Shown here piece after piece: positions 4,955 through 55,278 of a stretch of DNA of 64,000 nt. The notes beneath the pieces are model-generated. The model made no database searches, was not told where the DNA came from, and saw only the letters and a program-made list of their open reading frames with translations. Source of the stretch: Eledone cirrhosa (Eukaryota). The number at the start of each line of letters is the position of its first letter. Positions within the stretch are counted from its first letter, which is position 1. Where the stretch lies: NCBI GenBank assembly GCA_964016885.1, contig OZ024740.1, positions 194,556,001-194,620,000 on the forward strand, in the 5' to 3' direction. The position numbers and the translations under genes were made by a program.

Positions 4955-5049
4955 TTAATATAGAAAAGCTTCTACAGGACTAGAACTTTTTCATTCGTGA
5001 GGAATCATCAGGAGATTCCTGATGATTTCTCACGAATGAAACAGTTCTA
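4955..5049. mobile_element. Short fold-back of a hammerhead-containing terminus (same family as 22114-22315)
   Basis: Palindrome centred near 5011; CTGATGA at 5019 and GAAAC at 5038. Confidence 0.7.
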
Positions 5050-5685
5050 AAAACCGGTTTGTCTGTGTGTTTACATACAGAATAGCTGGCCACTCACAGT
5101 AAAGTGACCAGTGAAAAAAAAACTTGGTACATCTACATATGTATACGTGTGTGTATTCATATACATACTAGTATTTCAGTATACATATATGGATGTACAT
5201 CTTTAACTTAATTGTTTAAGCGTCAGTCATACAAAAGTGAGTTACAAACGAAACGAAATGTAATTTCGTTTCGTTATTTGTTTTTATCGTCTCCGTTGAA
5301 CCGGTACTTACTCACACTCTATGCAAATTGGTCTGCCCACTACTAATTTTCATAGAAAAAGCATATAACGATATGTGCTTTTACGATTCTCTAGAGAGGC
5401 CGGAAGATAGGTAAATATTGCTGATGAGTTGTAACAACAACGAAACTAGTTCAATATTCCTTGTTTGGCTTTCTGGAGAATAGAGGAAAGGTGTTTCCTC
5501 AAAAACCAGTATGACTCTAAAAACCGGTTTGTCTGTGTGTTTACATACAGAATAGCTGGTCACTCACAGTAAAGTGACCAGTGAAAAAAAAAACTTGGTA
5601 CATCTACATATGTATACGTGTGTGTATTCATATACATACTAGTATTTCAGTATACATATATGGATGTACATCTTTAACTTAATTA
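5047..5685 (+). mobile_element. Retrozyme-like non-coding tandem unit, period about 470 nt
   Basis: 5047-5213 is repeated at 5517-5684; contains ATGCAAAT at 5321 and a hammerhead at 5421; ends in (TA)n. Confidence 0.75.
5410..5460 (+). ncRNA. Minimal type I hammerhead ribozyme
   Basis: aatattg-CTGATGA-gttg taacaa caac-GAAAC TA GTT-caatatt; stems I and II pair perfectly and stem III is palindromic (ACTAGT). Confidence 0.9.
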
Positions 5686-5932: not shown

Positions 5933-6350
5933 AGATCAAAAGATGGTTAAAGGAGTTCAATATATTTTATTATGCGCATTTCAAAAACAAACATCATCAA
6001 ACAATAATATTTGTGTTTTCATCAGATAAAACAGGAGAACATGATATGAAGGCTAAAAAAACACTTGTTGATAGTGCAGTTTTAAATCAACATATGATAT
6101 GTTGATTTAAAACTGCACTATCAACAAGTGTTTTTTTAGCCTTCATATCATGTTCTCCTGTTTTATCTGATGAAAACACAAATATTATTGTTTGATGATG
6201 TTTGTTTTTGAAATGCGCATAATAAAATATATTGAACTCCTTTAACCATCTTTTGATCTTATATTATGCATACTCCAGTCCCACAAACTGTAGAGTGCTT
6301 CTTATCCGATATCTGCATTGCTTTATTGTACTACAATAAAACTCACCTCC

Positions 6351-6353: not shown

Positions 6354-6434
<81 letters not shown>

Positions 6435-6465
6435 GAAGTTGTTACACAACAGTTAGTTCACCATA

Positions 6466-6505
6466 CCGAGAACAATTGTTTCACCTTAGTGGATCCTCAG
6501 CTCGG
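6466..6505 (-). ncRNA. Minimal type I hammerhead in PLE 3' end
   Basis: Minus strand ccgag-CTGAGGA-tcc actaa ggt-GAAAC AATT GTT-ctcgg. Confidence 0.85.
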
Positions 6506-7958
6506 AATGGGCATGGTTATAGGAACAGGAAGGACAACCGTACGAACGCGCATGCGCAGAAACCCGGTCACTTCACACAGGCAATACTAGACTGCGTGCG
6601 TGAGGTGTAAGGGAGTTAACTGCGAAAGTCCGAAAAGTTTTTAGGTTGAAAATAAAATTACAAAGAATCAGTCCGGAACCTTGTAGTTATGCAATAGGTG
6701 TTTGGCGCCGTGTGGACAACTTGTGAAAAATTCACTTCTCGTGTTTAGGCAATGACTATTGCGTAATCTCTTTAGAATAGTTATTCGTTCGTCAATACAT
6801 AAGCCACACGTCGGATTTTCCCTTGCGTATGGCTTGGACTTAGTGATGGCTTTCCATTGAATGGCGTAGTCTTTACTTGAGTCCTTGAGGGACCATACGT
6901 AGCTCGCGAGTTTCGTGGATGAACGTCTGTCCGGGTACCTGAAGGTCAACTGGTGGTTCAGGAAACGTTCCTTAAATCGGCCCTCCGCCATGCCCACATA
7001 GGATTTGACCTCCTGTGGTTCGTTTGGTCGGTTGGAAGTGACCACAGCTTCATAAATTACAGCTGGTGTGTTTCATTGGTGTTGAAGGGGGCAAGCTTCA
7101 GGCTTACGGCAAGAGCACCCAGGTGGGGTGTGGCTCCTAGGGCTGTTTGTGATGTGGGCCATCATGTTCTTAGCGCAGGAGTATCCTAGTTTAACTTTGT
7201 GTCTGTTAAAGATGGAGCGGTATTTATGACCTATGGGAAAGTGTCTATCTAAGATGGCTAGAAATGTTTTTCTTACATTGGTTTTAACGTTTAGTGAGAA
7301 TGGAGGAGAGAACCAGATAGTTTGTCTATTGTTGTGCTTACTTTTCTTAACGGTGATGTTACTAGTGGGAGATTAAGTGATAGGTTGTAAGAAGCCGCTG
7401 TTAGCCAACGCCGTGTTATAGTAGGGTGCCGCCCTGTCGAAGGTAGCCTTATTAGAGGAAAGGTTTGAAATTCTAGTACTGATATTCTTAACGAAGTTTC
7501 TAAAAACAGTGGGAGGGTGGCATGTGTCCTTGTGAATGTAATTGAGTTTCACGTTTAGCTTTTGGAATGGTCTGTGGGTGTGTGTGCAAAGGTCTAAATT
7601 AATGTCTAAGAAATCTATGCAAGAGAGGTTGGTGGCTACTGTTATCTCATTGAAGGTAGAAGCTAAGTCTTTTTTAAACCGGTCGAGGTTGTGACCACTT
7701 TTATGGCTCGATAAAGTCAGTCCAACGTCGCGGTATATTCCCGTGTGGAAGTCCGGGAATCAAACACGTAATATGTCTAAGATAAATAGGCCAACCAAGT
7801 CACATACATCAGCACTGTCAAACGAGCCCATGGAGACGTCGAATACGTCTGAAGTTGTAGACTTCTTTGCCCAGGCTATATTGCCTGTGTGAAGTGACTG
7901 GTTTCTGCGCATGCGCGTTCGTACGGTTGTCCTTCCTGTTCCTATAACCAGGCCCATT

Positions 7959-7998
7959 CCGAGCTGAGGAACCGCTAAGGTGAAACAATTGTTCTCGG
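7959..7998 (+). ncRNA. Minimal type I hammerhead in inverted pLTR
   Basis: ccgag-CTGAGGA-acc gctaa ggt-GAAAC AATT GTT-ctcgg. Confidence 0.9.
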
Positions 7999-8092
7999 TA
8001 TGGTGAACTAACTGTTGTGTAACCACTCCTACCTAACTCGTCCCATGGACTGAGTGCTCTACCACTACGGATATTACCTTCCAGTCTTCCAC

Positions 8093-8186
<94 letters not shown>

Positions 8187-8247: not shown

Positions 8248-8434
8248 AACCAGTAAGACCCCGACAGCTGAGCTCAAGCCGTTTCGACGGCTAATTCTGG
8301 ACAGAATTAGCCGTCGAAACGGCTTGAGCTCAGATGTCGAGGTCTTACTGGTTCCTATTACCCACTCTACTACCTCAAGTATTGAGTACTTTGGTGCGTT
8401 ATGGTCCACCTGGTTCCTTACCACATTTCCTTCG

Positions 8435-8437
<3 letters not shown>
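8243..8437. mobile_element. Mini fold-back of PLE 3' terminus, family D
   Basis: Palindrome centred near 8300 plus an 80-nt tail; same family at 9021, 14646 and 27249. Confidence 0.85.
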
Positions 8438-8503
<66 letters not shown>

Positions 8504-8530
8504 TATATATATATATATATACACATATAT

Positions 8531-8820
8531 GGAAAGTTATATTTAAATTGTTGGGTTACAACTAGTAAATATTTATAACTGATATAAAAGCACTCAACAA
8601 GTATTTGGAGTATATTTACAATATTAAATAAATGGAAACTATATTTATAAAACCATATTTATTTCATTATATATATTTCAGGGATATCATATTAACAATA
8701 TGCTATGCCTTCCTCAGACAAAATACAATATAAACAGTTTTATAGATAAATAGATTCGACATACCGTAACAACATCGACTTGTATTTGAAAAGGTTGATT
8801 TGGTAGTTTAAACTGTTTAT
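8531..8820 (-). mobile_element. Hammerhead-bearing non-coding insert, family C
   Basis: Minus strand CTGAGGA...GAAATATATATA at about 8661-8725; homologous to 21194-21513. Confidence 0.7.
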
Positions 8821-10480: not shown

Positions 10481-11663
10481 AAGGGTTATCATATACATAA
10501 AATTAAATTAAGGATATATATATGTTGCAACTGTTCACTTTTAAGCTCAATGAAGAATTAATAAATTAAAATCAAATGATCAGAGCATTATATCATAAAT
10601 TATGTCTATAGAATCAATCAGATATTAAAATATATACTATTTCTTCTTCTAATCAGCATAATTAACCATATACAAAATCAAACCTAGCAAGCTTTAAGAA
10701 TAAATTTTCTTACGGGGAAATCTCTGACAAGCAATTGATCGTAACCTCTTCGCGGCGGCTCCGTTCCACTATTTATCAAACATTTCGGCAGCATGCAGAA
10801 TCCGATCAAATATACTATCAACCACACATAATTAGTAGTAAAATTAAACTTGGAAGAAATGTGCACATACCGTAATTATATCTCTACCATGGTTTCTTCC
10901 TTATTTAGGACATCCAAATAATATTGAATCCCAGAGTTAGGTTTCATCAGGAGATAAACTCAAAATCAGACATTTAGTTTCTCAAACCGACCGCGCCAAA
11001 TTTAGATTCAAAAATGGCTAAGATCGCTATGTAGCTGTGTACCAGCCAGAGAGAAAGCGTGTGATTGGTTGCTTACGGCGGGTAGGCTTGCTGCTAGAAA
11101 GCGCAGCCATAAATCGCCAAATTTAATCTCAACCAATTGGGAGATTATTAAATATAAAGGTTATCATATACATAAAATTAAATTAAGGATATATATATGT
11201 TGCAACTGTTCACTTTTAAGCTCAATGAAGAATTAATAAATTAAAATCAAAAGATCAGAGCATTATATCATAAATTTTTCTCTATATATTAAGAACTATT
11301 TCAAGAGTAACTTACTCACTAAATGTCTGATTTTGAGTTTATCTCCTGATGAAACCTAACTCTGGGATTCAATATTATTTGGAGGTCCTAAATAAGGAAG
11401 AAACCATGGTAGAGATATAATTACGGTATGTGCGCATTTCTTCTAAGTTTAATTTTACTACTAATTATGTGTGGTTGATAGTATATTTGATCGGATTCTG
11501 CATGCTGCCGAAATGTTTGATAAATAGTGGAACGGAGCCGCCGCGAAGAGGCTACGATCAATTGCTTGTCAGAGATTTCCCCGAAAGAAAATTTATTCTT
11601 AAAGCTTGCTAGATTTGATTTTGTATATGGTTAATTATGCTGATTAAAAGAAGAAATAGTATA

Positions 11664-11925: not shown

Positions 11926-14076
11926 GTATAAAAGAGAAAACACAGGTAAGCATTAAGAGAAGCATTTTATCCAGGTATTTACGACCGTTTCATTGGTAAG
12001 TGCAACCTTATATTGCTATACTGCAAATAACAGCCACTCAATTATAATTGTTGTTCACGTCCAAATTTTCAAAATAGTGAGTAAGTTACTCTTGAAATAG
12101 TTCTTAATATATAGAGAAAAACATTTTTGGGGAATTGTATTTATTAGTATAGAGAGGGATGAAGAGGAATTAGAAGGTGTGGGACAAACGGAATAGTATA
12201 GAGAGAGAGGAAGGGGGAGAAGTGTTAGGAAGTAGAGTGACAACTGAGATGGAGGGAAGGGTAGAGGTGGAAGGATTCTTTGATCAGTTTTGATATGTAG
12301 ACTTCATGTCGTCGTATGTAGTGAGTTAAAGAGAATTAAATTGATCATTATGGGAGGTATGGAGAGAGAGGAGGGAGATATAAAGAGATAAATATATATA
12401 TAAAAAATAAAGATAAAGATAATAATGACAAAAATAAAAGCAAAGAAGGGGGAGAAAGAAGAAAAGAAAAGATAACCAAAAAGGGGAGGGAAAGAAGAAA
12501 ACGAAGAAATAGAAGAGGAATGAAGGAGAAGGGAGGGATATAGGTATTGGTTTTTGTGGGTAATTAAAAGGGTTTAGATTCAATAAGAGGGTATATAGTC
12601 TAAGTATATGCAGTTTGTCAGTTGGTAGTAAGAGGTTAAGGGTTCGATTTGCACTTGTAGTGCGAAAACCTTTCTTTGGTTACAATAAATTGATCTTTCG
12701 ATTTTATTGTTGAGTAACTTATTCTTCGAACTCAAAATATGGAACAGCTCAAGGTCACATAATCGACAGCTTCTCATACCACTCCGATATGGGGGCGCGT
12801 TCGATAATTTGTTCCACTTCAGGGTGTATTGATGCTTACTTTCCCACAGTTGCCTGGTCTTGTTTGCAAGGGTAGTTACAAAACGAAGCTGGGAATGTTT
12901 CATTGCGTAACGGTGTGTATACCAACGGGCTTTAAATGTATTCCCAGTCACTCCGATGTAATACCATTTCTGGTTGTCTGATTCCACTGTGCATTGGTAA
13001 ACCAGTTTAGACTGCATACATTCATTATGTAATGGACAGGTTTCAGGTAGGTGGCAGTTACAATTCTTGTCATGGGCAACTTTGGCATTATTGGTGGGCT
13101 GCGATGCTTGTACAAGTGTTATGTTTTGTTTGCCTATTAGTGGGTGGTTGTGTATTAGATATTCTGTTGTGTTAAATGGTGATTGTATTGTTATTGTTGT
13201 AAATTTGTGTTCTGGTGTTGTTATGTATCTTTTTAGCGTTAAGCATCTTAATGTGTGCCTCTATATTTGGTGCCATGGAGTAAGATAGTCTAATAGATTT
13301 AGTGTTAAGGATTTTGCTGTATCTATGTGAATCTGGAAAGTGCTTATTTATTATTCTTAAGAATATAGAGGGTAGGTTAGTACTAATAGAGGTGTTAAAT
13401 ATGGGGTTATACCAAATATATGTTCTACTGCGAGACTTGTTTGATTTCGATGTTGTATTTCTATTTACCGTATACTTTGTAGTTCTCTGCGTAAGTGCGT
13501 GTGTGCGTGTGTTATGCGTGTTCGTGTGCGCTTTGCGGAGGCTTTCATCTATATATTCTACTCTATCTAAGTGGCCTGCCTTGTCTAATGCGGTATTGTA
13601 GTATTCTGCATGTTCCTCGAAGATTTGTCGGTTAGACGAGAGGCGGGAGATCCTAAGGGATATGCTGCGTGGAATTGATTTAATTATGATTAGTGGGTGG
13701 TTTGAGTTAGAGTTGATGTATGCTAAGTTTTCATTAATCTTGTGAAAAGATCTTATAAGTCCTGTATTAAGGTTAAGCGTCGCGTCTAGAAAGTTAACTG
13801 TTTTAGTGCTGTACTCATACGTTATGCTAAGGCCTAGTTTCCGAGAGTATTTCTAATATTCTTACGGAGTCTTTCTATGCTCTGGTCATTTAGGTTCTTA
13901 ACTAGGAGAAGGGCGTCGTCTCTGTAGATTCCACCGTGAAGGTCGCTAAACTCACTCTGTAAACTATGGGCTATGTAAATACCTACTACATCTGTGACTT
14001 GAGCCGAGTCGTTAGCCCCCATCGTGATGTCAAAGTTATTTAATCTATCCTTACGTTCCCAATAGGTTTTTTCAAA
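11926..14076 (-). mobile_element. 5'-truncated Naiad-type Penelope-like element
   Basis: ORF 13834-14082 has FDITMGANDSAQVTDVVG and YRDD; ORF 12580-13017 has YYIGVTGNTFKARWYTH and CRLC, preceded by CNCHLPETCPL. Confidence 0.9.
11974..12076 (-). ncRNA. Hammerhead variant with U3-A8 core and long stem II
   Basis: Minus strand tatt-TTGAAAA-t ttgg...ccaa t-GAAAC GGTC GTA-aata. Confidence 0.6.
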
Positions 14077-14878
<802 letters not shown>

Positions 14879-21193: not shown

Positions 21194-21680
21194 GTAGAAG
21201 TTCTATTTAAATTGTTGGGATACAACAAGCAAATATTTTTATAACTGATATAAAGCAGTCAACAAATAATTGGAGTAAAAATACGATATTAACACATGGA
21301 AACTATATTTATAAAACCATATTTATTTCATTATACATATTTCAAGGAGACCAAGTTAAATTATGGTGTGCTTTCATCAGATAAAATATAATATAGAGCA
21401 GTTTTAGAAATAAATATTGACATACCCTTAAAGAATGCGACCATTACTGTTGGAAGCTCCCGGGAGCTTCCAACAGTAATAGTCGCATTCTTTAAGGGTA
21501 TGTCAATATTTATTTATAAATTCAATACGGCTTAATACGGGATGTTTGTTTACAAACACACCGAACATTATAATAAATGTTCGGTGAATCCATACGTACA
21601 TATATATATGTGTGCATGTATGTATATATATATACATACTACTGTACGTCTGTATACATATTTGTATGTACGTGTACATA

Positions 21681-21685
<5 letters not shown>
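21194..21685. mobile_element. Composite: family C hammerhead fold-back joined to a family R fragment
   Basis: Minus-strand hammerhead near 21322-21388; palindrome centre GAAGCTCCCGGGAGCTTC near 21461; 21525-21685 matches 14306-14470. Confidence 0.8.
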
Positions 21686-21729
<44 letters not shown>

Positions 21730-23118: not shown

Positions 23119-24197
23119 AAATACGTCCCTCATCAGTGATTTGCCGAAGATCATAGATATTTCATTGCATTAAAAATCATATATCTCACTTCGGTGCAAT
23201 AATAACCAAAATAAGTTATTAGGACAATTAAAACGCGTAAAGCGAGTGAGACAGGAGAACAACAGAAAATATAGCATACCGTGGGGGAGAAACAAGCTTC
23301 AAAAATTATTCTGTTTAGCGTAAGCTAGGTGAATATATGAGCGCTTAGAGAATAGTACCAGCATGAACGAAGGCCATTGAGCAGAGAGAGAAAAAATAGC
23401 GTTCGTGAGTGCAGGATGAAATGAAGAGAAGAGGGAGAAAAACAGTGAGTGAGTGAAAGTGTGAGGAAGAGTTAACGGACAAGACAGAGGGGGAGAAACA
23501 GAGAGAATGGGGGAACAGTAAGAGAGAGAGAAAAAAACACAGAATCGCAGTGGTTAATATATGTATTAAAATATAGAGAAAAATACTGCAGGTAGCACAT
23601 GGTAACATGTAATAAAATACGTCCCTCATCAGTGATTTGCCGAAGATCATAGATATTTCATTGCATTAAAAATCATATATCTCACTTCGGTGCAATAATA
23701 ACCAAAATAAGTTATTAGGACAGTTAAAACGCGTAAAGCGAGTGAGACAGGAGAACAACAGAAAATATAGCATACCGTGGGGGAGGTCCGTTAACTCTTC
23801 CTCACACTTTCACTCACTCACTGTTTTTCTCCCTCTTCTCTTCATTTCATCCTGCACTCACGAACGCTATTTTTTCTCTCTCTGCTCAATGGCCTTCGTT
23901 CATGCTGGTACTATTCTCTAAGCGCTCATATATTCACCTAGCTTACGCGAAACAGAATAATTTTTGAAGCTTGTTTCTCCCCCACGGTATGCTATATTTT
24001 CTGTTGTTCTCCTGTCTCACTCGCTTTACGCGTTTTAATTTTCCTAATAACTTATTTTGGTTATTATTGCACCGAAGTGAGATATATGATTTTTAATGCA
24101 ATGAAATATCTATGATCTTCGGCAAATCACTGATGAGGGACGTATCTTATTACATGTTACCATGTGCTACCTGCAGTATTTTTCTCTATATTTTAAT
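23113..24197. mobile_element. Tandem (period about 496 nt) plus inverted non-coding unit
   Basis: 23113-23289 is repeated from 23610; inversion at about 23786; (TA)n on both sides. Confidence 0.8.
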
Positions 24198-24215
24198 ATA
24201 TATATATATATATAT

Positions 24216-24979
24216 AGTATGCTAGGGAAAGGATCAGGGGTGTATAACACTCCACTTATCCAGCAGGCAGTATGAGGTTAGCTCAATGTCTGAGGACAGA
24301 GCCGTAATATAATAAATAACAAAGAACGCTTATAGCATATGCATATCTTTACTTGCTAACATTGTTTCATCCGCACTATAAGTGGGACTCATCAGAGCAT
24401 AAAGGTTAATTACATACCATACAAGCAATAACAAATCCAAGACATTGAAGAATGAAAGGTAATAATAGACGATAAAGGATAAGAATAAAAATAAAAGTAA
24501 AAATAAAAATAAAAATAAAAATAAAAATAAAAATAAAAATAAAAATAAAAATAAAGGGTGCTATCAGTCACAGTTGGGCGGGGTGCCGTCAACATATAGT
24601 TACATACAAGCATACACATGGATAAGAGAACACACAAGAGTAGACACATGGATAAGAGAACAGACAAGAGTAGATAAGATAATGGGATTAGGTAAGAGTA
24701 GGTAAAAAATAGGTAAAAAATAGGTGAAAAACAGACTTATAATATATATAAAAAGAAATACAAAGAAATACATAACAAACTTACATATAAAATATAGGGT
24801 AAGGAATGAGATAAAATAATATAAAATTAAAAATTAAAAATTATATACATAGAACATAATATAATATAATCGTAAAATAAGATAAAATAAGGTAAACTAA
24901 AATCAAATAACATAGACTAAATTAAAATAATATAATATAAGATATAATTAAATGTATAATTAAATGTAATTAAATGTAA

Positions 24980-25019
<40 letters not shown>

Positions 25020-27208
25020 AAATTAAGAATTAAATAAATAAATAAAATTTAAATTTAAATTTTAAAATTTAAATTTAAATTTAAATTTAAATAAATAAAT
25101 AAATAAATAAATGGAGTCAAGTAAGTAAATAAATAAAATTAGATAACATGAAATGAAATAAAATAAAATGAAATAAAGTAAATTGAGATAAGATATATAT
25201 TTTTTTTTTTAGAATATATCTCTTGAATATATCAGGGGCCCACGAAGGCACTAAGTGTCACAGTTATGCGTATCACTTGACCAATTTTTTAAAATATATT
25301 TCTTGAAAACATCAGGGGCCCACGAAGGCACTAAGTGTCACAGTCACCAGTATCACTTGACCATTGCAAGGCAATGGAGGCGTCCCAGGTTGGGCAGTCT
25401 CGAAAGTTCACTCGAAAGTCATGGGTGTGCATTCACACAGTTGAGCGGTGGGGTAATCACAAACCGGTTCACACACGGGCAGGAGTCCAATGGTCAGAGA
25501 GAGGTGCATCGAAGTAGGTAGAAGAATTCACATGCATTAGCAAGCAAGGTGAGGCGGGCCAAAGCAAGCAGACACAGTTGTAGCGCATACAAAATATATA
25601 TAAAAAGACAGAAGATATATAAAAAATAGCTTCAGGAGCCATTAAGTCACCGCATTGGGACATCACAAGATTGTACACATCAATATGTTCAGCACGTATA
25701 TGCACGTATACACACCACATGCATATGCAGAGACGGTATACATATATATATATATATTTTTTTTTATATATACAGACACATATAACCACCTACACCCATA
25801 CACATATAAATGTATACACGGACACACACGCACACACACACAGCGTAGGACACACGGGTCAAAGCCGATATTAAATACGATATTAAACACCGAAATACCA
25901 CATTAGACCAGACCCACCACCACAGGTAATATATTCAAAACAAATACATACGATGAGATGTAGAAAAATAAAGTTGAAATCCTACGGAGATATTCATGTC
26001 TGCACGTGCCATTGACCGATTCGAGTGTACACAGACCGTTAGTAACTACGGAGGGCCATCGGGGCCAAAACGTTACTTTCGGGATCATAAAAACGACCGT
26101 CAATATATGGAAGGCCGATCGTGCTAGAAAGACTACAACCCCGGGTAAGAGCTCCCAGAGGTCAGCCTTTAGATCTTGAACCACAGAATATGAGGGCAAC
26201 ACGTATATGCGCCACGTATCCACTGCTTACGGCAGGATGGCACGGGTCCGCCCACAGTTACAGGCTAAATTTCTACTAGTGCAGCCTAAATCGCAGTACA
26301 CGCTTTACATAAATACATTACATCACAACTCATGCGCATACAGAGGTACAGATCAACAAGATATACGTCAGGATAGGTCCACCAATGCACTAATGGTGGG
26401 TAGGCCAGCGTGGATGGGTTACATCCACTGTGCCAAACAGGGGTGCTTATTAACATACACTCCCCTGCACACCCCAATATCAAGATCAATATCCTCCCAC
26501 AGGCATACGTATACATTCACAGACTCGTATACATAGACGGCCAACAATAGGAGACAGTTACACACAGTCAGAGACAGTTACACAAGACAGCCCAACTGGA
26601 GGAATAAGGACGTGCTAGCTAACAGGTTTAAAGTAGAAGAAAGAGCTTAATATTCGGTGGGGGCAAGAGGAAAAAATTTCAGACTTTCTATTTAGTAGAG
26701 GGCATTTAGCAAATATAATAGAGTGGGATTCGGCAAGGCACAGGTTACATACTCTACTATGAGGAGTATATGGATGGGATTTAGCAACCTGCCGCCAAGT
26801 AAGTGTGAAAGGTGTTCGTGCATTTTTTAAATTATGGACGTACGCTGCCAAAGAGGTGGAGTTCCTCAGTTTATTATGTCTAAAAGTGCATTGATGAGAG
26901 TTAAACCTGGTCTTAAAGGGGGTGGAAGTTGATCCTATATAGGTCATAGTGAACGCCGTAGTTACCACATCACACGCATAAACTATGTTTCTAACAAGGC
27001 AGAAACCATTCAGGGGGCAGCCTGAAGCCCTTCTACAGTTACAACCTCTGGTGATGCTATTCTCAGAAAGATCACCACCAGTGTTTCTGCCCACTCCATC
27101 CACTACCGTGTTTTCCCCTAGGCTTAGGTTGTCCAGGCCTTCCTTTATTTTCTTATTATTAGTAATGGCCAGATGAGAGGCCAGATTTTGGGTTGTAGAA
27201 TACGAAAG

Positions 27209-27955: not shown

Positions 27956-29023
27956 TAAAGTTAGTCCTTCATCAGTGATCCTCCAACCATTATTGGTATT
28001 TCATCGCTTTAAAGACCATATACCTCCGGTTGGTGCGAGAAACGGCTAAAAAAGTCGTTGGGACACGTAAATAAAGGGGACACGAGAGTGTTAACAAACA
28101 AAGATGGTGAAGCAACGAAAGGTGAGGAAGAACGAGTCAAGTCCCAAATTTCCATGAATATAAGTTCGGTGAAATCGCGAACGAGAGAGAATAAAGACCA
28201 TCAAACCTGGTTGGAATGTGAGCAAGGAAGGAATTCCGTACAGGTCTAACGGGGGGAAGAAGGAATCTAGTCTGTGAATTCGGTGAACATAAGTTCTGTG
28301 AAATCGTAGACGAGAGAGAGAAAAAAAGCGAACCAGCCTGACCAAGAGTGCGAAAGAAAAGAATTACGCACAGGTCAAACGGGAAGAAGGAGGAGTAGGA
28401 GAGGTAGTAACAGAGAGTGAGTGAGTGAAGGGTGAGGAAGAGGCTAACAGAGAGAGTGACTGTTAGAGAAGGTAAAGATACAGAGAAAGAGGAAGCAGTA
28501 TGAACGAAATAGACAGGTCACAGCGGGGGGAAAAATATGTGTAAATATGAGAATAAACGGGCTGCGTGGTTGCTAATGGGTTACATATGAATAAAGTTAG
28601 TCCTTCATCAGTGATCTTCCAACCATCATTGGTATTTCATAGCTTTAAAGACCATATACCTCCGGTTGGTGCGAGCAACGGCTAACAAAAGTCGTTGGGA
28701 CACGTAAATAAAGGGGACACGAGAGTGTAAACAAACAAAGATGGTGAAGCAACGAAAAGTGAGGAAGAACGAGTCAAGTCCCAAATTTCCATGAATATAA
28801 GTTCGGTGGAATCGTGATCGAGACAGAATAAAGACCATCAAACCTGGTTGGAATGTGAGCAAGGAAGGAATTCCGTACAGGTCTAACGGGAGGAAGAAGG
28901 AATCTAGTCTGTAAATTCGGTGGACATTAGTTCTGTGAAATCGTAGACGAGAGAGAAAAAAAGCGAACCAGCCTGACCAAGAGTGCGATGGTTCAATGAA
29001 TAAATCAAAGAATGAGTTTTATA
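27951..29023 (-). mobile_element. Tandem non-coding unit, period about 636 nt, related to the 23113 family
   Basis: 27951-28351 is repeated at 28587-28988; shares the GAAATA...ATCACTGATGA.GGAC motif. Confidence 0.8.
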
Positions 29024-29056
29024 CATATATATATATATATATATGTGTGTATTATG

Positions 29057-29096
<40 letters not shown>

Positions 29097-29123
29097 ATAT
29101 GTATGTATATATATATATGTGTG

Positions 29124-29170
<47 letters not shown>

Positions 29171-29171
29171 G

Positions 29172-29202
<31 letters not shown>

Positions 29203-29225
29203 ATTTATATTTATATATATATATG

Positions 29226-29316
<91 letters not shown>

Positions 29317-29317
29317 G

Positions 29318-30039
29318 TAAACGGAAAAAATGAAACGAAATTTCATTTCTCACTCTTAGTACGGCTGTTACTTAAATATAAGTATGTATACGTACATACC
29401 TATATGTATACAGACGTACAGTAGTATGTATATATATATATATACACATACATGCACACATAAATATATGTACGTATGGATTCACCGAACATTTATTATA
29501 ATGCTCGGTGTGTTTGTAAACAAACATCCCGAATTAAGCCGTACAGTGTCTAGCAACCATCGTTGCTCATTTGTTCAACACTGACAAAGGAACGTTGTAC
29601 TAGTTTCAAGCTTATTAGCTATCGTCAGCAACGTATACCTTCCTGCCAGATGGTTGAACGTCCGAAAGTATTTACTTTCCTTATGCATATTAACGGCTGA
29701 GCAGCCTAATTTGCATATCGAGTGAGTTAATCGGCCGGGGTACCGAAAGCGATAAACCGAAAAAATGAAACGAAATTTCATTTCTCACTCTTAGTACAGC
29801 TGTTACTTAAATGTAAGTATGTATACGTACATACATATATGTATACAGACGTACAGTAGTATGTATATATATCTATGATGATGGCTGCCCCCTCGTTATC
29901 GTGTATGGCCATTGCACGAGGAGAAAAAATAAATAAATAAATAAATAAATAAATTTAAAAAAAAATAAATAAATAAATAAAAATAATAATAATTAAAAAA
30001 ATAATAAATAAATAAAAAATAAAATAAAATAAAAATAAG

Positions 30040-30087
<48 letters not shown>

Positions 30088-31887
30088 TTACACATACATA
30101 TACATACACACACACATATATACACACATATACATTAATAACAATAATAATAATAACAACAATAATAATAACGACAACAACAATAATAATATACATATAC
30201 ATATATATATACACATACACGCACATACATAAATATATCTACACACACACACACACACAATAGCAACTAACAGCGCTGCGATCGAATGTGGCTTTTTAGC
30301 CCAGACAATGGTCTAAAATGTCTTGCAGAGAGTCGTCAACCAAAACATTCACTGGGAATAGTCGGCTGTGGCTGGAGTTCGTGTACTTTTGCATGTCGCT
30401 TGAGCCCTCCTGCTCATTTACATTCTCTACCACATGTTTGGCAAGCATGATGAGTAGCATCTCCAACAGCAGGCTGGTAGTCAACCACTGGTCTTACTTT
30501 ATGACTGCGAAGATGACTTTCGAGTCCAGCTTTGCTTAGGCAGCCTCGCACAGACGCTGCATGTCAGCACCATAGGAGGACCCTCGCCGTCTGGAAGTGC
30601 AACAGCAATGCCCTTCCTCACATCCCGCTTTACTTTCTCGTATGCGATTCGAGATGCCTCAAAGGCAACTTTTCCCTCATATACAGTCTTTCTCCATTTA
30701 TTACGACCAGCAGCAATATTTTCCCATGTATCAGCAGAGATGTGAGCGTCTTTCAGAGAGGCTTTCAAGGAATCCTTATACCTCTTTTTTGGTTTATGTG
30801 TCGGTCGTTTTCCTTTAACCAACTCTCCATAAAAGAAGTGTTTTGGTATTCTAGAATCCTTCATCCTGGCAAGGTGACCACTCCAACGGAGTCGTTGCTT
30901 AAGCACAAGAGCTTCTATACTGTCACACATAGAGCTTTCCAAAATCTCGACATCACTGATGTGGTCCCTCCAGTGAACGCCATGGATCCGTCTGAGACAC
31001 ATCTGATGGAAATGCTCCAATTGCTTAAGGTGGTGTCGATATGTGACCCAAGTCTCGCAGGCATAAAGAAGACAAGAGAGCACACATGCCCTGTACACCT
31101 TTACCTTTGTCCTCCTGCATATGTCTTGCCGACCCCAGAGTCGCCTTTCTAGCTTTCCGAAAGAATCACTTGCTTGCCTAATCCTAAGTAAGATTTCACT
31201 GTCAAGGTTGCTGTATCGATTGACAGTGCTTCCCAGGTAGACAAACTGATCAACCACTCCAAGTCGTTTACCATACACATAGATATTTGGTTCAGTGTAC
31301 TGCTTACCAGGGGCAGGTTGGTACATGACGACTGTTTTCTTGAGACTGACAGTCAATCCTAGGGCAGTGCAAGCGTCAGAAAATGTATTCAAAATGTGCT
31401 GCATATCACTCTCTGTGTGCGCTACAAGATCGCAATCATCTGCATACAAGAGGTCTCTTATGATTGATGTAAATACTTTTGTCTTTGCAGCAAAGCGCCT
31501 GATGTTAAATATGTTGCCTGAGGTTCGATATCGGATGTAAACACCATGCTCGCAATTCCTGAATGCAATACAGAAAACCATTGCAAAGTATATGGCAAAC
31601 AGGGTCGGTGCTGGAATATCCCCCTGTTTCACTCCATTTTTTACTGAGATAGGCTCCGACATGTTACCTCCGACATTAACCCAAGCCTTCATGTCGTCAT
31701 GGAAAGACCTAACTAAAGCAAGGAACTTATCAGGGCAACCAACTTACTGGAGAACCTTCCATAATGCATCTCTGTTAACAGTATAGAAAGCTTTTGTCAC
31801 ATCGACGAAAACCTGATACAGATCCAAGCCTTGTTCCATGCACTTCTCCTGGAGCTGTCTAGCTGAGAAGATCATATCAGTAGTGCC

Positions 31888-31926
<39 letters not shown>

Positions 31927-33061
31927 CATGCACACATATATATATGTACGTATGGATTCACCGAACATTTATTATAATGCTCAGTGTGTTTGTAAACAAA
32001 CATCCCGAATTAAGCCGTACAGTGTCTAGCAACCATCGTTGCTCATTTGTTCAACACTGACAAAGGAACGCTGTACTAGTTTCAAGCTTATTAGCTATCG
32101 TCAGCAACGTATACCTTCCTGCCAGATGGTTGAACGTCTGAAATATATACTTTCCTTATGCATATTAACGGCTAAGCAGCCTAATTTGCATATCGAGTGA
32201 GTTAATCGGCCAGGGTACCGAAAACGATAAACGGAAAAAATGAAACGAAATTTCATTTCTCACTCTTAGTACGGCTGTTACTTAAATATAAGTATGTATA
32301 CGTACATACATATATGTATACAGTAGTATGTGTATATATATACATACACACATAGATATGTACGTATGGATTCACCGAACATTTATTATAATACTCGGTG
32401 TGTTTGTAAACAACAAATCCCGAATTAAGCCGTACAGTGTCTAGCAACCATCGTTGCTCATTTGTTCAACACTGACAAAGGAACGCTGTACGAGTTTCAA
32501 GCTTATTAGCTATCGTCAGCAACGTATACCTTCCTGCCAGATGGTTGAACGTCTGAAAGTATATACTTTCCTTATGTATATTAATGGCTGAGCAGCCTAA
32601 TTTGCATATCGAGTTTCATTTTTTCCATTTATCGTTTTCGGTACCCCGGCCGATTAACTCACTCGATATGCAAATAGGCTGCTCAGCCGTTAATATGCAT
32701 AAGGAAATTATATACTTTCAGACGTCCAACCATCTGGCAGGAAGGTATACGTTGCCGACGATAGCTAATAAGCTTGAAACTAGTACAGCGTTCCTTTGTC
32801 AGTGTTGAACAAACGAGCAACGATGGTTGCTAGACACTGTACGGCTTAATTCGGGATGTCTGTTTACAAACACACCAAGCATTATAATAAATGTTCGGTG
32901 AATCCATACGTACATATATATATATGTGTGCATGTATGTATATACATATACATACTACTGTACGCCTGTATACATATATGTATGTACGTATACATACTTA
33001 TATTTAAGTAACAGCCGTACTAAGAGTGAGAAATGAAATTTCGTTTCATTTTTTCCGTTTA
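29318..33061. mobile_element. Family R array: about 2.9 minus-strand tandem units plus one inverted unit, interrupted by an RTE
   Basis: Minus units 29318-29871 and 31889-32614, plus unit 32613-33061; hammerheads near 29590-29640, 32065-32115, 32480-32530 (minus) and 32745-32795 (plus, CCGACGA). Confidence 0.85.
29874..31888 (-). mobile_element. 5'-truncated RTE-clade LINE
   Basis: ORF 30499-31692 has GVKQGDIPAPTLF, LLYADD and LLYACETW; upstream TTDMIFSARQLQEK; 3' end GCAGCCATCATCAT. Confidence 0.92.
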
Positions 33062-33075
33062 TATATATAATATTT

Positions 33076-33112
<37 letters not shown>

Positions 33113-33262
33113 TATTGTATATATATTACATATGTATATATTATATATATAATATATATTGTATATATATATATATTATATATATATTTATATATATAAT
33201 ATTTATTGTATATATATATATTATATATATATTTATATATATAATATTTATTGTAAAATATA
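33062..33262. repeat. Compound (TA)n/ATAATATTTATTGT minisatellite
   Basis: Motif recurs here and throughout 35238-36680. Confidence 0.85.
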
Positions 33263-35238
33263 ACCTCCAGCAATGCATGATGACCATCATCAATAACCAG
33301 AGAATAGCTGAAGAGAGGTGGGCTATTGAGAAAATCAAGCTCAACCCCAAAGTGTTCTTTTCATTTGCTTAAAAACACAAGGTCATCGTCTCCACTGTTG
33401 ACCCTCTAGTTTATGAAAATGGCACACTCCAGGACAATGCCAAAACCATGGGCAAGATACTGCAGATACAATACTGCTCTGTTTTCAGCAATACTGATAT
33501 GGCCGATCTGGATCGTATCAGTGATCTTAATCCCCCAAACACTATATCAGACATAACGTTTGGCACCCCTGATGTCTTAGCGGCAATAAACGAAATTAAA
33601 CACAATTCAGTAGTAGGCCCTGACAGGTTCCCTGCTTGTGTCCTGAAGTTGTGTCGACACCAACTTGCATCTCCTCTTGCTAATCTGTGGAGGAACTCAC
33701 TGGATACTGGCTATATTCCTGAAAACTTTCTGTCCCAGTCCGTTGTCCCAGTTTTCAAAAAGGGAAATAAGTGCCTTGCAGTGAACTACCGTCCGATCTC
33801 ACTCACCTCTCATATTATAAAGGTATTTGAGAGGGTGGTGAGATCACGAATAAACTACTTTCTTGAAAGCAACGGCCTGCTGAACTCCAACCAACATGGG
33901 TTCCGTAATGGAAGGGAGTGCCTAACGCAGCTCCTGCATGATTTTGACGATATTTTGAGAGCCTTGGGGGAGGGCTCCAACACTGATGTCATTTACCTTG
34001 ACTCCAGCAAGGCCTTCGACAGGGTTGATCATAAAATTTTACTGAAAAAGCTATCCAATATTGGTGTCTCTGGAAAGTTAGTACAGTGGATCAAGTGTTT
34101 CCTGACAGGCAGAACCCAGCATGTTGTAGTCGAAGGAGTAAAATCAAACTCTGCCAAAGTCAGCAGTGGCGTCCCACAAGGCACTGTGTTGGGCCCACTT
34201 CTTTTCATCATCTACATTAAGGACATTACTGACATCATCAAGCACAGCAACATCAGAATCTTTGCAGACGATTCCAAGCTCCAAAGGGTCATCAATGAGG
34301 TGGGTGACCGGACTTGCCTTCAGTCCGACCTACTGGCTGTTATCCTATAGGCAGAGATGAATAATATGCTGTTGAATGATGATAAATTTGAATTAATGCA
34401 CTTTGGAAAAAAGGATGCCCGGAAACTACCATACTCTCTTCCTTCGGGTGAAACTCTAGTGGCTTCCAATAACATCAGAGACCTGGAAGTAATTGTGGAC
34501 GACAACATAAGCTGAGCCACTCATATAAACAGTAAAATTGATATGGCCCGCAGAATGTGTTCCTTAGAACTTTCCTGTCGAGAGATATCCACACTTTTAT
34601 CCTTCTCTTCTCCACTTTTGCCCGACCCCACCTTGAATACTGTTGTCCATTGTGGTCACCTCACACGAAACAAAGAATCATGAAAGTTGAAGCACCCCAA
34701 AGATCAATTACAAAAATGATAGATGGCATGACAGGCCCTGACTATTGGAGTCTATTAGAAAAGCTTAAACTGTATTTTCTCCAACGTCGCCGTGAGCGCT
34801 ACATTATCTGTATGATGTGGAAAATATTCCATCAGCTTTGCACAAATGATGTTGGCATCACCTTTAGTGTAGACCCAAGGCTTCAGCCCCGTCCCTATCC
34901 GCCCACGACAAAAATCTCACTCGCATCACTTAACAACAATACGGCACAATTATTTCACCTCAATTGGCCCTGCACTCTTTAACATTACACCAAGACACAT
35001 CAAAGCAGAGACAGACCCCATCAAGTTCAAGAAGTCTTTGGAGAAATTCCTGCAAGAAATCCCGGATAAGCCTCCTACATCCGGATATGCCTCCGTAAAC
35101 AATAACTCTCTGCTCGAGTGGGCCATGGTGCCCAAACGCTGATTTGTAAGACTTCGCCAGGTGGTGGTATTAAGTTAGACATGTCCTGGGCCAATACTGG
35201 CCGAATCCTATCAATGTAATCAAAGTTATCAAAGTTAT
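33263..35238 (+). mobile_element. 5'-truncated CR1/L2-group LINE
   Basis: NYRPISLTS, QHGFRNGR, YLDSSKAFDRV, SGVPQGTVLGPLLF, FADD, RPHLEYC; stops and a frameshift; 3' tail TATCAAAGT repeats. Confidence 0.9.
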
Positions 35239-35496: not shown

Positions 35497-40467
<4,971 letters not shown>

Positions 40468-41914: not shown

Positions 41915-41995
41915 TATAGGAAATACTGTATATATTTTATCAAATGATTCTATGGACGTACTTTCTTGTATATACATATATTTATATATATATAT

Positions 41996-44083
41996 CGTTT
42001 CTGAATTTGTTTAGCAAGATTCTTTATATGAAAACGTGTGTTGAAACCGATATTGTTATACTTTGGGAGGGTCATGTTGCCAATAAGAATCACACGCACC
42101 AGTTGCTTTAACTTCAATTTATCATAGTAAATTTATAAATTTAGGAATTTATAAATTTCCGGTTGGTTCGTTGGTTCCATAACCAGATGGTTGTTTATAT
42201 ATTGTCAAAGTTCTTTCGTCACACATTATGTGACCTCTTCAGTGACTGGGGATTCTTTTCTTTGTTTTTGTGCCTCTCCTTTGTTCTGTCCTACGCCATC
42301 TTGTTTCTGTGTGTGTGTGTTGTGTGCTCAGTCTGCGCATGCGCCACATCCGGGTATCTGTGTATGTTTATATTCGTTTATTTATTTGTTTATTTACATG
42401 TTACAGGTTAGTTGTTTGTTCTATGTGCGTGTGTGTTTTCATTTTGTCCTTAATTGTAAGTTGTGATGTTGCTGTTCCACTCATGTTTTCTATTTAATTT
42501 TGGTTGTAATTCTTTTATGTTTATTGCCTCTGTGATTTGTCTAAACATTGCGTCTTTTCTGCGTGTAGATTCTATTTTTATTTCTATGTTCTCTAATTTA
42601 CCCTTATATTCTATTTTAGCATGCTGGTAGAGTACATATGATTCTTTACTATCTTGAAGGTCTCGCCAGTGTTCATTTATACGTTCCCCTACACTACGAG
42701 CTGTCTCACCTATGTACACTATATTTTTGTCTCTACATTGTCCTTCAGTACATCTTATGCTATATAATACATTTCTAGTTTTACAGTTAATATGGGGGCT
42801 TAATTCACAGGTTATACATTTCTTATCTATACAGGGGGGTCTTTTAAAAGGGTATGTCTTGCTAATAAGTGTTTTTACGGAGGTACCTGGTCTTTCTACT
42901 ATCTTAATATTGAGTTTATGTTTATCTAGGGCCCTTCTAAATTTGTAAGCTAATTCACCTCTAGGGGTTTTATCGATGAACATTACACTCTGGTATTTAT
43001 TGCTATCATACCATGAGTTTATTCTATTAGCCTTATTCCTAGTTCTTTCTATTCTATTCCAAAATTTGCTCCTATACAAGGGGCAGGTCCCATTTGTGTC
43101 ATTATTTACGATTTTTTCCCATTTGGTTCTGGCTCCTCTATACACTCTGATTTTATCTCTCTGATTGTAACCAGAGAACTGCATACGGGGGATGAAGTGT
43201 TGTATGTGTCTCTCTAGTTCTTCGGGGTTGCACATGCGGGACACGTTTCTCATCACCCGTACCAAATCCGCAATCAGTATGTTGATTTTGGTATGGTCCG
43301 AAACAGCTGAGTTTCGGTGGATCAGATATTTGGAAGTCATGGGTTTGGCATAATGGGAATGTAGGATTTGTTTTTTTGTTATTAATGGTATCTAACCAGA
43401 GCTCTGTGTCTATTACAGGTAATCGATGGTTGTGGTGTTTACTTGGGTAGTCTATAGTAACTCTAATACTCTGGTGGATGGAATTAGCTATTTGCTGGAT
43501 GCTTTCCATTGTGTTTTTCCTCTAATTCCTGACTGTTCTCTAGTGGGGGTGTTTTAACTACGATGTTTATATAATCAACGTAGCGGGAGTACATTATCAG
43601 GGTTAAAGGGTCTTCTAATTTTTCTTTAAGTTTAAGTTTAAGTCTACTGTCCCACCATACCATGAATAAGTTAGCTATGTCGCCTGCAATGCTAGCACCA
43701 ATGGCTGCTCCTTCCTCTTGGGCATATGCTTTTCCATTAAATTTGAACATATGTTCCTTAAGGGTTAATTTTATGCTGGCTCCCACCGCATGTGCAATCA
43801 TTTTCTTTAGTTCATCGTGGTTTTCGGGTGTCCGTATGGCTCTGGTCCACCCGTTCCATCTATCTGTGTGGGTTTTCTTGGGCATTGAGGTAATGGTAGG
43901 TGGTCTGCCTCTTGCTGATCTTGTAGCGCACAGGTTGCTAAGGTCATATGTGTCTAGGTAATTATTACTATAGGTAAGTTTAAGTAGGAGTCCCAGCTCA
44001 CTGGTATCAATCCCACGGAATTCAACATTGCTCTCACTGATCATTTCTACGCATTTCTCCACAGCAAAATCCACGTCAATAGA
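41996..44083 (-). mobile_element. Penelope-like element (non-Naiad, tentatively Nematis-like), left arm
   Basis: Frameshifted ORFs 43484-44104, 43153-43509 and 42450-43340 with QEEGAAIG, RYVDY and YIGETARSVGERINEH. Confidence 0.9.
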
Positions 44084-46467
44084 GAAGAAGCCCTCAATGC
44101 CCATATGGTGATGTGGACGAATATAATGCAGCCCAACAAAAGGACTGCCAACAACTTCCAGGCCTGGAACAATGACGTGTCAGCGTTTTATGGTTTTCGA
44201 GAAGACTACAAAACGAGCAGTGACCCTGTCGCGGGACCACCAACACGGTCAGTCTGTGGAGCTAACATTGCTAGTAACTACAGACTGTCCTACTTCCTCT
44301 CCCTGATCATACACCCCGTCATTGAAATGTCCCCAGATGTATGTGACAGCACGGAGGACCTCCTCAGCAGAATCGGCGAGAGTAACCGATCTAGGGACCT
44401 AACAAACTGCATAATAGGTAGTATGGCTGTTGTGTCCCTGTATCCATCTATTGACGTGGATTTTGCTGTGAAGAAATGCGTAGAAATGATCAGTGAGAGC
44501 AATGTTGAGTTCCGTGGGATTGATACTAGTGAGCTGGAACTCCTACTTAAACTTACCTATAGTAATAATTACCTAGACACATATGACCTTAGCAACCTGT
44601 TCCCTACAAGACCAGCAAGAGGCAGACCACCTACCATTACCTCAATGGCCAAAAAAACCCACACAGATAGATGGAACGGGTGGACCAGAGCCATACGGAC
44701 ACCCGAAAACCACGATGAACTAAAGAAAATGATTGCACATGCGGTGGGAGCCAGCATAAAATTAACCCTTAAGGAACATATGTTCAAATTTAATGGAAAA
44801 ACATATGCCCAAGAGGAAGGAGCAGCCATTGGTGTTAGCATTGCAGGCGACATAGCTAACTTATTCATGGTATGGTGGGACAGTAGACTTAAACTTAAAC
44901 TTAAAGAACAATTAGAAGACCCCTTAACCCTGATAATGTACTCCCGCTACGTTGATGATATAAACATCGTAGTTAAAACACCCCCACTAGAGAACAGTCA
45001 GGAATTAGAGAAAAGCACAATGGAAAGCATCCAGCAAATAGCTAACTCCATCCACCAGAGTATTAGAGTTACTATAGACCACCCAAGTAAACACCACAAC
45101 CATCGATTACCTGTACTAGACACAGAGCTCTGGTTAGATACCATTAATAACAAAAAACAAATCCTACATTCCCATTATGCCAAACCCATAGCTTCCAAAT
45201 ATCTGATCCACCGAAACTCAGCTGTTTCGGACCATACCAAAATCAACATACTGATTGCGGATTTGGTACGGGTGATGAGAAACGTGTCCCGCATGTGCAA
45301 CCCCGAAGAACTAGAGAGACACATACAACACTTCATCCCCGTATGCAGTTCTCTGGTTACAATCAGAGAGATAAAATCAGAGTGTATAGAGGAGCCAGAA
45401 CCAAATGGGAAAAAATCGTAAATAATGACACAAATGGGACCTGCCCCTTGTATAGGAGCAAATTTTGGAATAGAATAGAAAGAACTAGGAATAAGGCTAA
45501 TAGAATAAACTCATGGTATGATAGCAATAAATACCAGAGTGTAATGTTCATCGATAAAACCCCTAGAGGTGAATTAGCTTACAAATTTAGAAGGGCCCTA
45601 GATAAACATAAACTCAATATTAAGATAGTAGAAAGACCAGGTACCTCCGTAAAAACACTTATTAGCAAGACATACCCTTTTAAAAGACCCCCCTGTATAG
45701 ATAAGAAATGTATAACCTGTAAATTAAGCCCCCATATTAACTGTAAAACTAGAAATGTATTATATAACATAAGATGTACTGAAGGACAATGTAGAGACAA
45801 AAATATAGTGTACATATGTGAGACAGCTCGTAGTGTAGGGGAACGGATAAATGAACACTGGCGAGACCTTCAAGATAGTAAAGAATCATATGTACTCTAC
45901 CAACATGCTAAAATAGAACATAAGGGTAAATTAGAGAACATAGAAATAAAAATAGAATCTACACACAGAAATGACGCAATGTTTAGACAAATCACAGAGG
46001 CAATAAACATAAAAGAATTACAACCAAAATTAAATAGAAAACATGAGTGGAACAGCAACATCACAACTTACAATTAAGGACAAAATGAAAACACACACGC
46101 ACATAGAACAAACAACCAACCTGTAACATGTAAATAAACAAATAAATAAACGAATATAAACACACACAGATACCCGGATGTGGCGCATGCGCAGACTGAG
46201 CACACAACACACACACAGAAACAAGATGGCGTAGGACAGAACAAAGGAGAGGCACAAAAACAAAGAAAAGAATTCCCAGTCACTGAAGAGGTCACAGAAT
46301 GTGTGACGAAAGAACTTTGACAATATATAAACAACCATCTGGTTGTGGAACCAACCAACGAACCAAAAATTTATAAATTCCTAAATTTATAAATTTATTA
46401 TGATAAATTGAAGTGAACGCAACTGGTGCCTGTGTTTCTTATTGGCAACATGACCCTCCCAAAGTAT

Positions 46468-46472
<5 letters not shown>
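44081..46472 (+). mobile_element. Penelope-like element, right arm, 5'-truncated
   Basis: ORF 44105-45421 has SLYPSID, GAAIG and RYVDD; frameshift near 45340 into ORF 45295-46077 (Cys-rich linker and GIY-YIG). Confidence 0.92.
46279..46321 (+). ncRNA. Type I hammerhead in PLE 3' end
   Basis: gtca-CTGAAGA-g gtcac agaatgt gtgac-GAAAG AA CTT-tgac; mirror copy at 42204-42246. Confidence 0.85.
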
Positions 46473-54627: not shown

Positions 54628-54714
54628 TAATCCTATCCGAAATTTTAAAACAGAAGGCAGAACCTCTTCCTTAAGATATGTTTAATTTTGATTTAATGTA
54701 GATGTGATGTAGAA

Positions 54715-55278
54715 AAGCAAAGATTGAGAGTCTTTGAATCCAGGGAGCTGACATCTGAGACTAAACTTAAAGTTTATAACCAATGTGTGACTCCTCTCTT
54801 GTCGTATGGAAGTGAGACGTGGACTCTCCATCGTTACCACATTAGACAGTTAAGAACAGATCAGCAACGGCACTTTAGGTTCATTCTCAACATCAAATGG
54901 AATCACTTTGTCACACACGATGAGGTTCTGAAACGTGCAAAGATTCCCGATATTGAAACTATCCTCATAAGGAATAGACTAAGATGGGTTGTCCATGTCG
55001 TCCACATGGATGATTGTGGACCTGTAAAGAAACTTCTTTTTGGTGAGCTTCAGGATGGTGTTCGACATGTAGGACGGCCTCTCTTGAAGTATAAGGACAC
55101 AATCAAAGATATTTTGAAAAAAGTTAACATTCTTCACTCCTGGAGACATTATGTCGATGACAGACCAATATGGCAGAAGCTAATCCATGATGTAAACATA
55201 GATATTGAAAACCAAAAGGAAGCAGGACAACAAGAGGAAAAGGGAGAAACGACACAATAATAGACCAGATTGACTAAT
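54715..55278 (+). pseudogene. RTE-clade LINE 3' fragment
   Basis: TKLKVYNQCV..LSYGSETW...RLRWVVHV...GRPLLKYKD. Confidence 0.85.

Follow-up and report, generated by a model that had tools for sequence, protein, structure and literature searches.

The array at 29318-33062 of the window analysed here (64,000 nt of Eledone cirrhosa, GCA_964016885.1, OZ024740.1, positions 194,556,001-194,620,000, forward strand) raises the question of which enzyme inserts a short, non-coding, hammerhead-bearing repeat into (TA)n tracts, and what form of RNA it copies. The repeat family, termed R, is likely inserted by the RT and endonuclease of a PLE, probably one of the Hydra clade, with both arms of an insertion likely copied from one RNA that is probably a circle; we assign this combined reading a probability of roughly 0.6. 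Copying of animal retrozymes by PLEs from RNA circles has been proposed since 2014-2020.

Table 1 Features of the window referred to in the text (window positions; c numbers refer to the R unit)
Position	Strand	Feature	Remarks
5046-5683	+	Sister family S (unit length 467-470 nt), ~1.3 units, with a hammerhead at 5421	
11941-14076	-	5'-truncated, broken Hydra-clade PLE (RT end, CxCx5C linker, GIY-YIG endonuclease, 3' UTR)	
14077-14529	+	R arm, 1.06 units, intact hammerhead at 14220, end = site A	
21526-21687	+	Short R copy, c53-c214, end = site B in (TA)n	
29020-29317	.	(TA)n target tract, left flank	
29318-29751	-	R unit 1, 3'-most of left arm, end = site A (c272)	
29592-29633	-	Minimal type I hammerhead, core CTGACGA..GAAA intact	Predicted cleavage after GUA at 29598
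29752-29875	-	R unit 2, 3' part, up to internal TA tract	
29876-31888	-	5'-truncated RTE-type non-LTR retrotransposon, later insertion into unit 2 TA tract	RVT_1 E 1.3e-10, translation, junctions
31889-32226	-	R unit 2, 5' part, hammerhead intact (core 32104)	Predicted cleavage after 32074
32227-32613	-	R unit 3, 5'-truncated at c302, core intact (32519), loop III CTAG to CTCG	
32613-33062	+	Inverted R arm, 1.05 units, end = site A, core mutated (CCGACGA at 32755)	
33063-33251	.	(TA)-rich target tract, right flank	

The two arms of the focal array, 29318-32613 (minus strand) and 32613-33062 (plus strand), meet head-to-head over ~2 nt of microhomology, and the outer ends of both lie within (TA)n. 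Without the nested element, which we take from its motifs to be of the RTE type, the minus-strand arm measures 1283 nt, i.e. about 2.9-3.0 units when a TA duplication is allowed for. This agrees with the original prediction, made from the letters of this stretch, of about three head-to-tail units, split by an RTE and set in (TA)n together with a single inverted unit. The period of 415-435 nt given there was recovered as well (435 nt end to end, 415 nt from cleavage site to cleavage site), as was the common end TTTTTCCGTTTA, adjoining (TA)n, of the copies at 14528, 29318 and 33060. No credible ORF is present, the longest (<=69 codons) being read through the TA-rich tract. The claim of one hammerhead per unit requires a qualification: each unit does contain one type I motif, but the inverted unit carries a U4-to-C change within the catalytic core and unit 3 has lost the loop-III palindrome. 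Overlooked at that stage was the fusion of the R copy at 14077-14529 to a coding PLE. Other decayed non-LTR retrotransposon ORFs are located at 33373-34982 and 54697-55260.

R is numbered over a unit of 427 nt, with c1 at the predicted cleavage site, and monomers elsewhere mostly measure 420-433 nt. Genome-wide (3.0 Gb), 5,384 sites match the 37-nt ribozyme core exactly compared with 0 for the reversed control, so the repeat is not a product of chance. The putative hammerhead comprises a 5-bp stem I, the core CUGACGA..GAAA, a 3-bp stem II over a U-U and, preceding GUA, a helix III with the palindrome CUAG, and its stems co-vary with those of the sister family S. Stem II is weak, with the U-U at its base, and the motif by itself is not predicted to fold as a hammerhead (z 0.04); the minimal form present in R has been reported to require a dimer for cutting (Cervera 2014, PMC4209133). 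Rfam failed to detect the motif, with zero matches at gathering level and nothing but AT-hairpin miRNA noise at low stringency. The circle is predicted to be highly structured (z = -8.8, 40 shuffles), a value inflated by the TA palindrome. Conservation of the hammerhead core (2% vs 3.5%) was discarded as evidence, because the loci were partly selected by that motif. Judged by its sequence (37% GC, <=69 codons), R is a metazoan non-LTR retrozyme with predicted cleavage and a predicted circular form. An older subfamily (L414-L443), 78-94% identical to R, with the hammerhead CTGATGA-CAGCT and a pattern count of 1,510, shares both end sites with R. The window also contains other short repeat families, dispersed or inverted, at 392-567, 4961-5049, 5935-6347, 8252-8430, 10484-11658, 23122-24420 and 27960-28988, and several of these have hammerhead-like motifs.

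Published metazoan non-LTR retrozymes are, like R, non-coding tandems of a few hundred nt with one type I hammerhead each, <50% GC, a self-paired fold, thousands of copies and PLE co-occurrence, the 427-nt unit of R being slightly above the 170-400 nt of invertebrate circles. They are described as direct tandems, whereas most R insertions are head-to-head with two fixed, mutually exclusive 3' ends, and R departs from those descriptions also in targeting (TA)n and in being fused to PLEs of one particular clade. Circular RNA has been demonstrated for metazoan retrozymes and is predicted for R. PLE mobilisation from a circle was proposed by Cervera and de la Pena 2020 (PMC7229834) and by Li, Clavereau and Pollet 2026 (10.64898/2026.07.22.740005); in the retrozyme literature, to the extent that it was covered here, copying of circles by PLE enzymes is not demonstrated and no helper is named. 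The literature searched, supplements excluded, contains no two-armed retrozymes and none in cephalopods, a point on which figure S9 of PMC7229834 may bear.

The 3' ends of R fall at site A (c272), at site B (c213) or, more rarely, at c165; all are internal to the unit and TA-matching, and A is positioned just 3' of a conserved hairpin, 59 nt from B. Exact end-plus-TA patterns gave 731 matches for A and 1,957 for B, the latter with a low-complexity pattern; for the sample, 90 places were taken from the first 100 listed for A and 70 from the first 100 listed for B, all on C1, and 5 segmental duplicates were removed. R arms have a median length of 0.85 unit, 59 of 155 exceeding one unit and 5 of 155 exceeding two. 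The 5' neighbour of 154 complete arms is an inverted R arm in 98 cases, a microsatellite in 16, a direct R in 3 and other DNA in 37. Across 215 non-redundant loci (of 279), 117 head-to-head pairs were counted, which divide into A/B (75), A/A (2), B/B (1), pairs with c165 (16) and pairs with another end (23). Accordingly, 75 of the 78 pairs using only A or B ends combine one of each. The same rule applies to 17 of 19 two-armed loci of S and, with a 134-nt tail, to 15/15 loci of the coding Hydra-clade PLE of the window (of 19 loci fetched, 4 show no inverted arm). The focal array, an A/A insertion outside the 117-pair count, is atypical for R in this respect.

The sampled R insertions display variable 5' truncation, microhomology junctions and (TA)n targets. 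Arm lengths within A/B pairs are uncorrelated (rho 0.09), and since either arm may be the longer one (A in 30/75, B in 45/75), neither is a fold-back copy of the other, and a model in which the second arm is made by folding back on the first was rejected. A tail on one end is a reported property of PLE insertions (Craig 2021, PMC8557442; Arkhipova 2013, PMC3846280). Hydra-clade PLEs as described there resemble R in their partial tandems, inverted 5' copy, one-end tail, microhomology or palindromic junctions, (TA)n targets and a hammerhead near the 3' end, and differ in that R is without an ORF. The tail measures 59 nt in R, 70 nt in S and 134 nt in the Hydra family of the window, as compared to 30-40 nt reported for PLEs. 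For the anole Poseidon in vitro, Frangieh 2024 (PMC11167929) equates the tail with the segment that separates two RT start sites, and reports extension of both target strands, a predicted protein dimer and AT-rich targets. Internal RT initiation at two nearby sites and extension of both strands would be common to Poseidon and R. In contrast, start sites are equal between strands for Poseidon, whereas the arms of R almost always differ, and priming by Poseidon was reported at a site lacking homology to the cut DNA, whereas the R sites end in TA-matching bases. From the A/B rule in R, S and the coding Hydra PLE, taken together with these start sites, we infer that PLE machinery inserts R, with one subunit starting at each site. 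That R is a non-autonomous element mobilised by PLEs is very likely, and the retrozyme identity and PLE RT originally put forward are well supported by the (TA)n targets, the internal TA-matching 3' ends, the tail rule, the inverted arms and two fusions to Hydra-clade PLEs.

Several observations bear on the template. The two arms of a pair match in subfamily (subfamilies AA 62, BB 5, AB 1, mosaic 8), and rare non-CpG variants are common to both arms at 0.93/kb (12/106 loci) as compared to 0.03/kb between loci; post-insertion gene conversion could also be a source of such variants. Direct neighbour units share rare variants at 0.98/kb, a figure partly inflated by one locally amplified array. 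In 64 of 75 A/B pairs both arms summed exceed one unit plus the tail. On a self-cleaved linear monomer the RT would halt at c1. The cleavage site is, however, passed by 106 of the 110 R arms that reach c1, with 4 stops against 5.8 expected, and the spacing at the cleavage junction is normal in 451/451 matches (overlapping loci and long arrays included). Read-through and unchanged junction length together imply a template continuous across c1, which may be either a multimer left uncleaved or a circle, whether closed or nicked. Stops after one full turn are in excess at site A (15 vs 5.2 expected) and not at site B (0 vs 4.1), and were dropped as proof of a circle for that reason. In a post hoc count, 4 of 13 arms have second-pass stops near the cleavage site (0.7 expected). 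Template-borne R variants comprise 19 A-to-G and 8 T-to-C changes (p 0.03, uncorrected), compared with 132 and 108 among private variants, an excess that is only a hint at A-to-I editing of the RNA intermediate.

The three long R arrays examined consist of period-2 or period-4 repeats, which rules them out as rolling-circle products and identifies them as later DNA amplifications. L121-L123 (G000:C1:51.77-51.79 Mb) form a ~52-unit R satellite with a period-4 higher-order repeat at one end, and L124 and L125 are R satellites of 10 and 4.5 units with period 2. Old arrays were reshaped later by RTE insertion, local duplication and probably contraction, and short R arms may, by inference, be contracted remnants. 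Given its atypical A/A ends and the DNA-level amplification of the three long arrays, the focal array by itself is no proof of a circle.

The sister family S (window 4961-5683; G000 C1:30.83 Mb, C18:30.95 Mb, C4:231.85 Mb and C2:105.80 Mb) is 73% identical to R, has homologous end sites 70 nt apart and 9,536 hammerhead-pattern matches, and is much younger than R. Two-armed S insertions reach 20-25 identical units. One young haplotype is present as 17.6+8.0 units with 23/23 monomers identical and as 6.9+12.9 units with 18/18 identical; it is not private to one locus, as 69 matches lie at 7 places. These young insertions favour rolling copying. In another S insertion (L378, G000:C4:1.64 Mb), one site alternates between A and G along both arms, out of phase between the arms. 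A monomer circle does not account for this pattern, which calls for a template of two units or for a modified base that is read variably. The haplotype of L374 carries three A-to-G changes clustered within 6 nt and fixed in a young S lineage, for which A-to-I editing of the RNA intermediate is again a possible source.

Alternatively, the same two-site PLE priming may operate on a long, uncleaved linear transcript of a genomic tandem array, which the hammerhead cuts rarely or later. Such a template would be in line with the anole PLE, for which hammerhead cleavage is unnecessary, unprocessed RNA is the main in vitro substrate and no reads end at the cleavage site (Frangieh 2024, PMC11167929), with the weak hammerhead of R, and with the inactivity in vitro of 8/9 frog dimers (Li 2026, 10.64898/2026.07.22.740005). 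Long homogeneous arrays exist as possible sources, and the alternating S insertion and the second-pass stops fit, too. However, RNAs of at least 17 units (8 kb) would be needed with every hammerhead uncut. Furthermore, among the arrays that carry the young S haplotype, the longest one is a recent A/B insertion with two arms, no longer source array was found in the assembly (two small contigs with the haplotype left out), and units of old source arrays differ by 2-5%, whereas the young daughters are uniform. We therefore regard an uncleaved multimer as unlikely and copying of R from a circular RNA template as probable. Of the rolling-circle reverse transcription originally proposed, mobilisation by a PLE RT is well supported and the circular template is favoured only.

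Template jumping is established for R2-type RTs, and an RT that copies self-cleaved linear monomers by jumping from one 5' end to the next 3' end could in principle also build R arrays, with the few arrays that switch subfamily internally (L138, L116) as compatible examples. The 5' ends of all R arms are not enriched at the cleavage site, however (8 vs 6.2 expected), junction length is unchanged, and arms and units are mostly of one haplotype, which makes such jumping improbable. A nicked circle held by stem I is indistinguishable from a ligated one and was counted with the circular template.

Two chimeras point to a candidate for the PLE that supplies the enzyme. The PLE at 11941-14076 ends at its own tail-less site B in (TA)n and represents the candidate helper family; its motifs (RWK, DKT for DKG, CxCx5C linker, C-terminal GIY-YIG) and (TA)n target fit the Hydra clade as defined by Craig 2021 (PMC8557442), an assignment made by motifs. 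Pfam searches with the Hydra pieces found no family, and a protein search for longer relatives returned none. The R arm at 14077-14529 is joined head-to-head to this PLE via a 3-nt microhomology and occupies the position of the PLE family's own inverted arm. In a second fusion (L394, G000:C1:77.44 Mb), R ending at A is head-to-head with a truncated Hydra-like PLE with a tail-less end, which belongs to the family at window 6432-8095. The two fusions hence involve two different Hydra-like families, and both combine R-at-A with PLE-at-B. L086 was rejected as a third chimera because a 19-nt second R arm separates R and PLE. Fusions amount to 1/154 sampled R arms, which fits the 1/76 of subfamily-discordant pairs. 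No sequence shared by R and the fused Hydra family was detected, pLTR included. A tail-less end is common anyway, occurring in 13 of 19 Hydra PLE copies. Since both chimeras could be deletions between neighbours, and since (TA)n is likewise the target of a window PLE that belongs to a different clade, a Hydra-clade helper for R is somewhat favoured and no more than likely. At least 4 more PLE insertions in (TA)n are present in the window (6432-8095, 26615-27208, 38110-40457 and 41919-46470), three of them Hydra-like and one of the other clade; the latter has 2-kb inverted arms with hammerheads at 42242 and 46283. Those of the four that are two-armed likewise have extra sequence at just one end.

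That R represents only the pLTR of a coding PLE, seen in 5'-truncated copies, is highly improbable. Its anatomy, with hammerhead, two start sites and tail, fits a pLTR, one copy in the window touches a PLE ORF, and R may descend from a pLTR, as Li 2026 (10.64898/2026.07.22.740005) links frog retrozymes to pLTRs. However, what precedes an R unit is a further unit of the same family, an inverted arm, (TA)n or unrelated DNA. A same-strand PLE ORF, detected by similarity to the window's PLE proteins, is located upstream of 2/378 arms at the 215 sampled loci, and both are separate insertions. The original prediction had itself named this reading as one that would refute it; over the 378 arms, R is without an ORF of its own upstream, which speaks against that refutation. 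Moreover, the fused PLE has its own pLTR, R is found on 0/29 other copies of that PLE, and the older R subfamily lacks an attached ORF (30 loci). A flank search revealed no coding parent of R, and neither did two relaxed hammerhead patterns, which returned S and the older R subfamily. Chlamys-clade PLE derivatives such as MRC1 (PMC8557442) are, like R, non-coding PLE passengers in multicopy head-to-tail form, but MRC1-type elements resemble autonomous partners at the 3' end, whereas no such partner was found for R, and that report describes no canonical hammerhead for the Chlamys clade, whereas R has one. A different hammerhead-bearing repeat (21198-21426, 8436-8765 and L444) is the pLTR of a coding Hydra-like PLE, with the ORF ~1.1 kb upstream in L444.

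Finally, an origin of R as a DNA satellite that recombination by itself has spread and inverted is barely credible. The higher-order repeats in long arrays speak for it, but the 3' ends of R are fixed and paired within (TA)n, its 5' truncation varies, its copies are scattered across many chromosomes, and its end rule is the same as in coding PLEs.

Based on the directly observed unit, two end sites, their pairing, shared haplotypes, read-through and chimeras, we propose that R would be copied as follows. A tandem copy would be transcribed, and two hammerheads would pair via the palindromic helix III to excise monomers, which may close to circles, either ligated or nicked and held by stem I. 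A PLE protein dimer would then cut both (TA)n strands, with one subunit priming at A (c272) and the other at B (c213), 59 nt upstream. Both subunits would run through the cleavage site and may pass more than one unit, and the two cDNAs would subsequently join head-to-head by short complementarity, often in the palindromic TA-rich stem. More tentatively, and with rather less than even odds, an asymmetric, doubly target-primed dimer may roll on one circle and so produce up to 25 identical units in a single event, with Hydra-clade enzymes serving unrelated ribozyme circles in trans and sometimes loading two different RNAs, from which the retrozyme-PLE chimeras would result.

In conclusion, the footprints counted in the Eledone cirrhosa genome are paired start sites, one template for both arms and passage through the cleavage site. 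A candidate helper clade can now be named, along with a short RNA substrate on which two priming sites are mapped and with (TA)n as a simple target. Together these suffice to examine directly in vitro whether a telomerase-related enzyme carries out rolling-circle reverse transcription. The 'optional' tail of PLEs obtains a rule, in which one arm has the tail and the other has none. Should the asymmetric dimer on a single circle prove correct, a single mechanism would account for the tail of PLEs, their inverted pLTR and the arrays of retrozymes, and changes made to the circle by A-to-I editing might become fixed in genomic copies.
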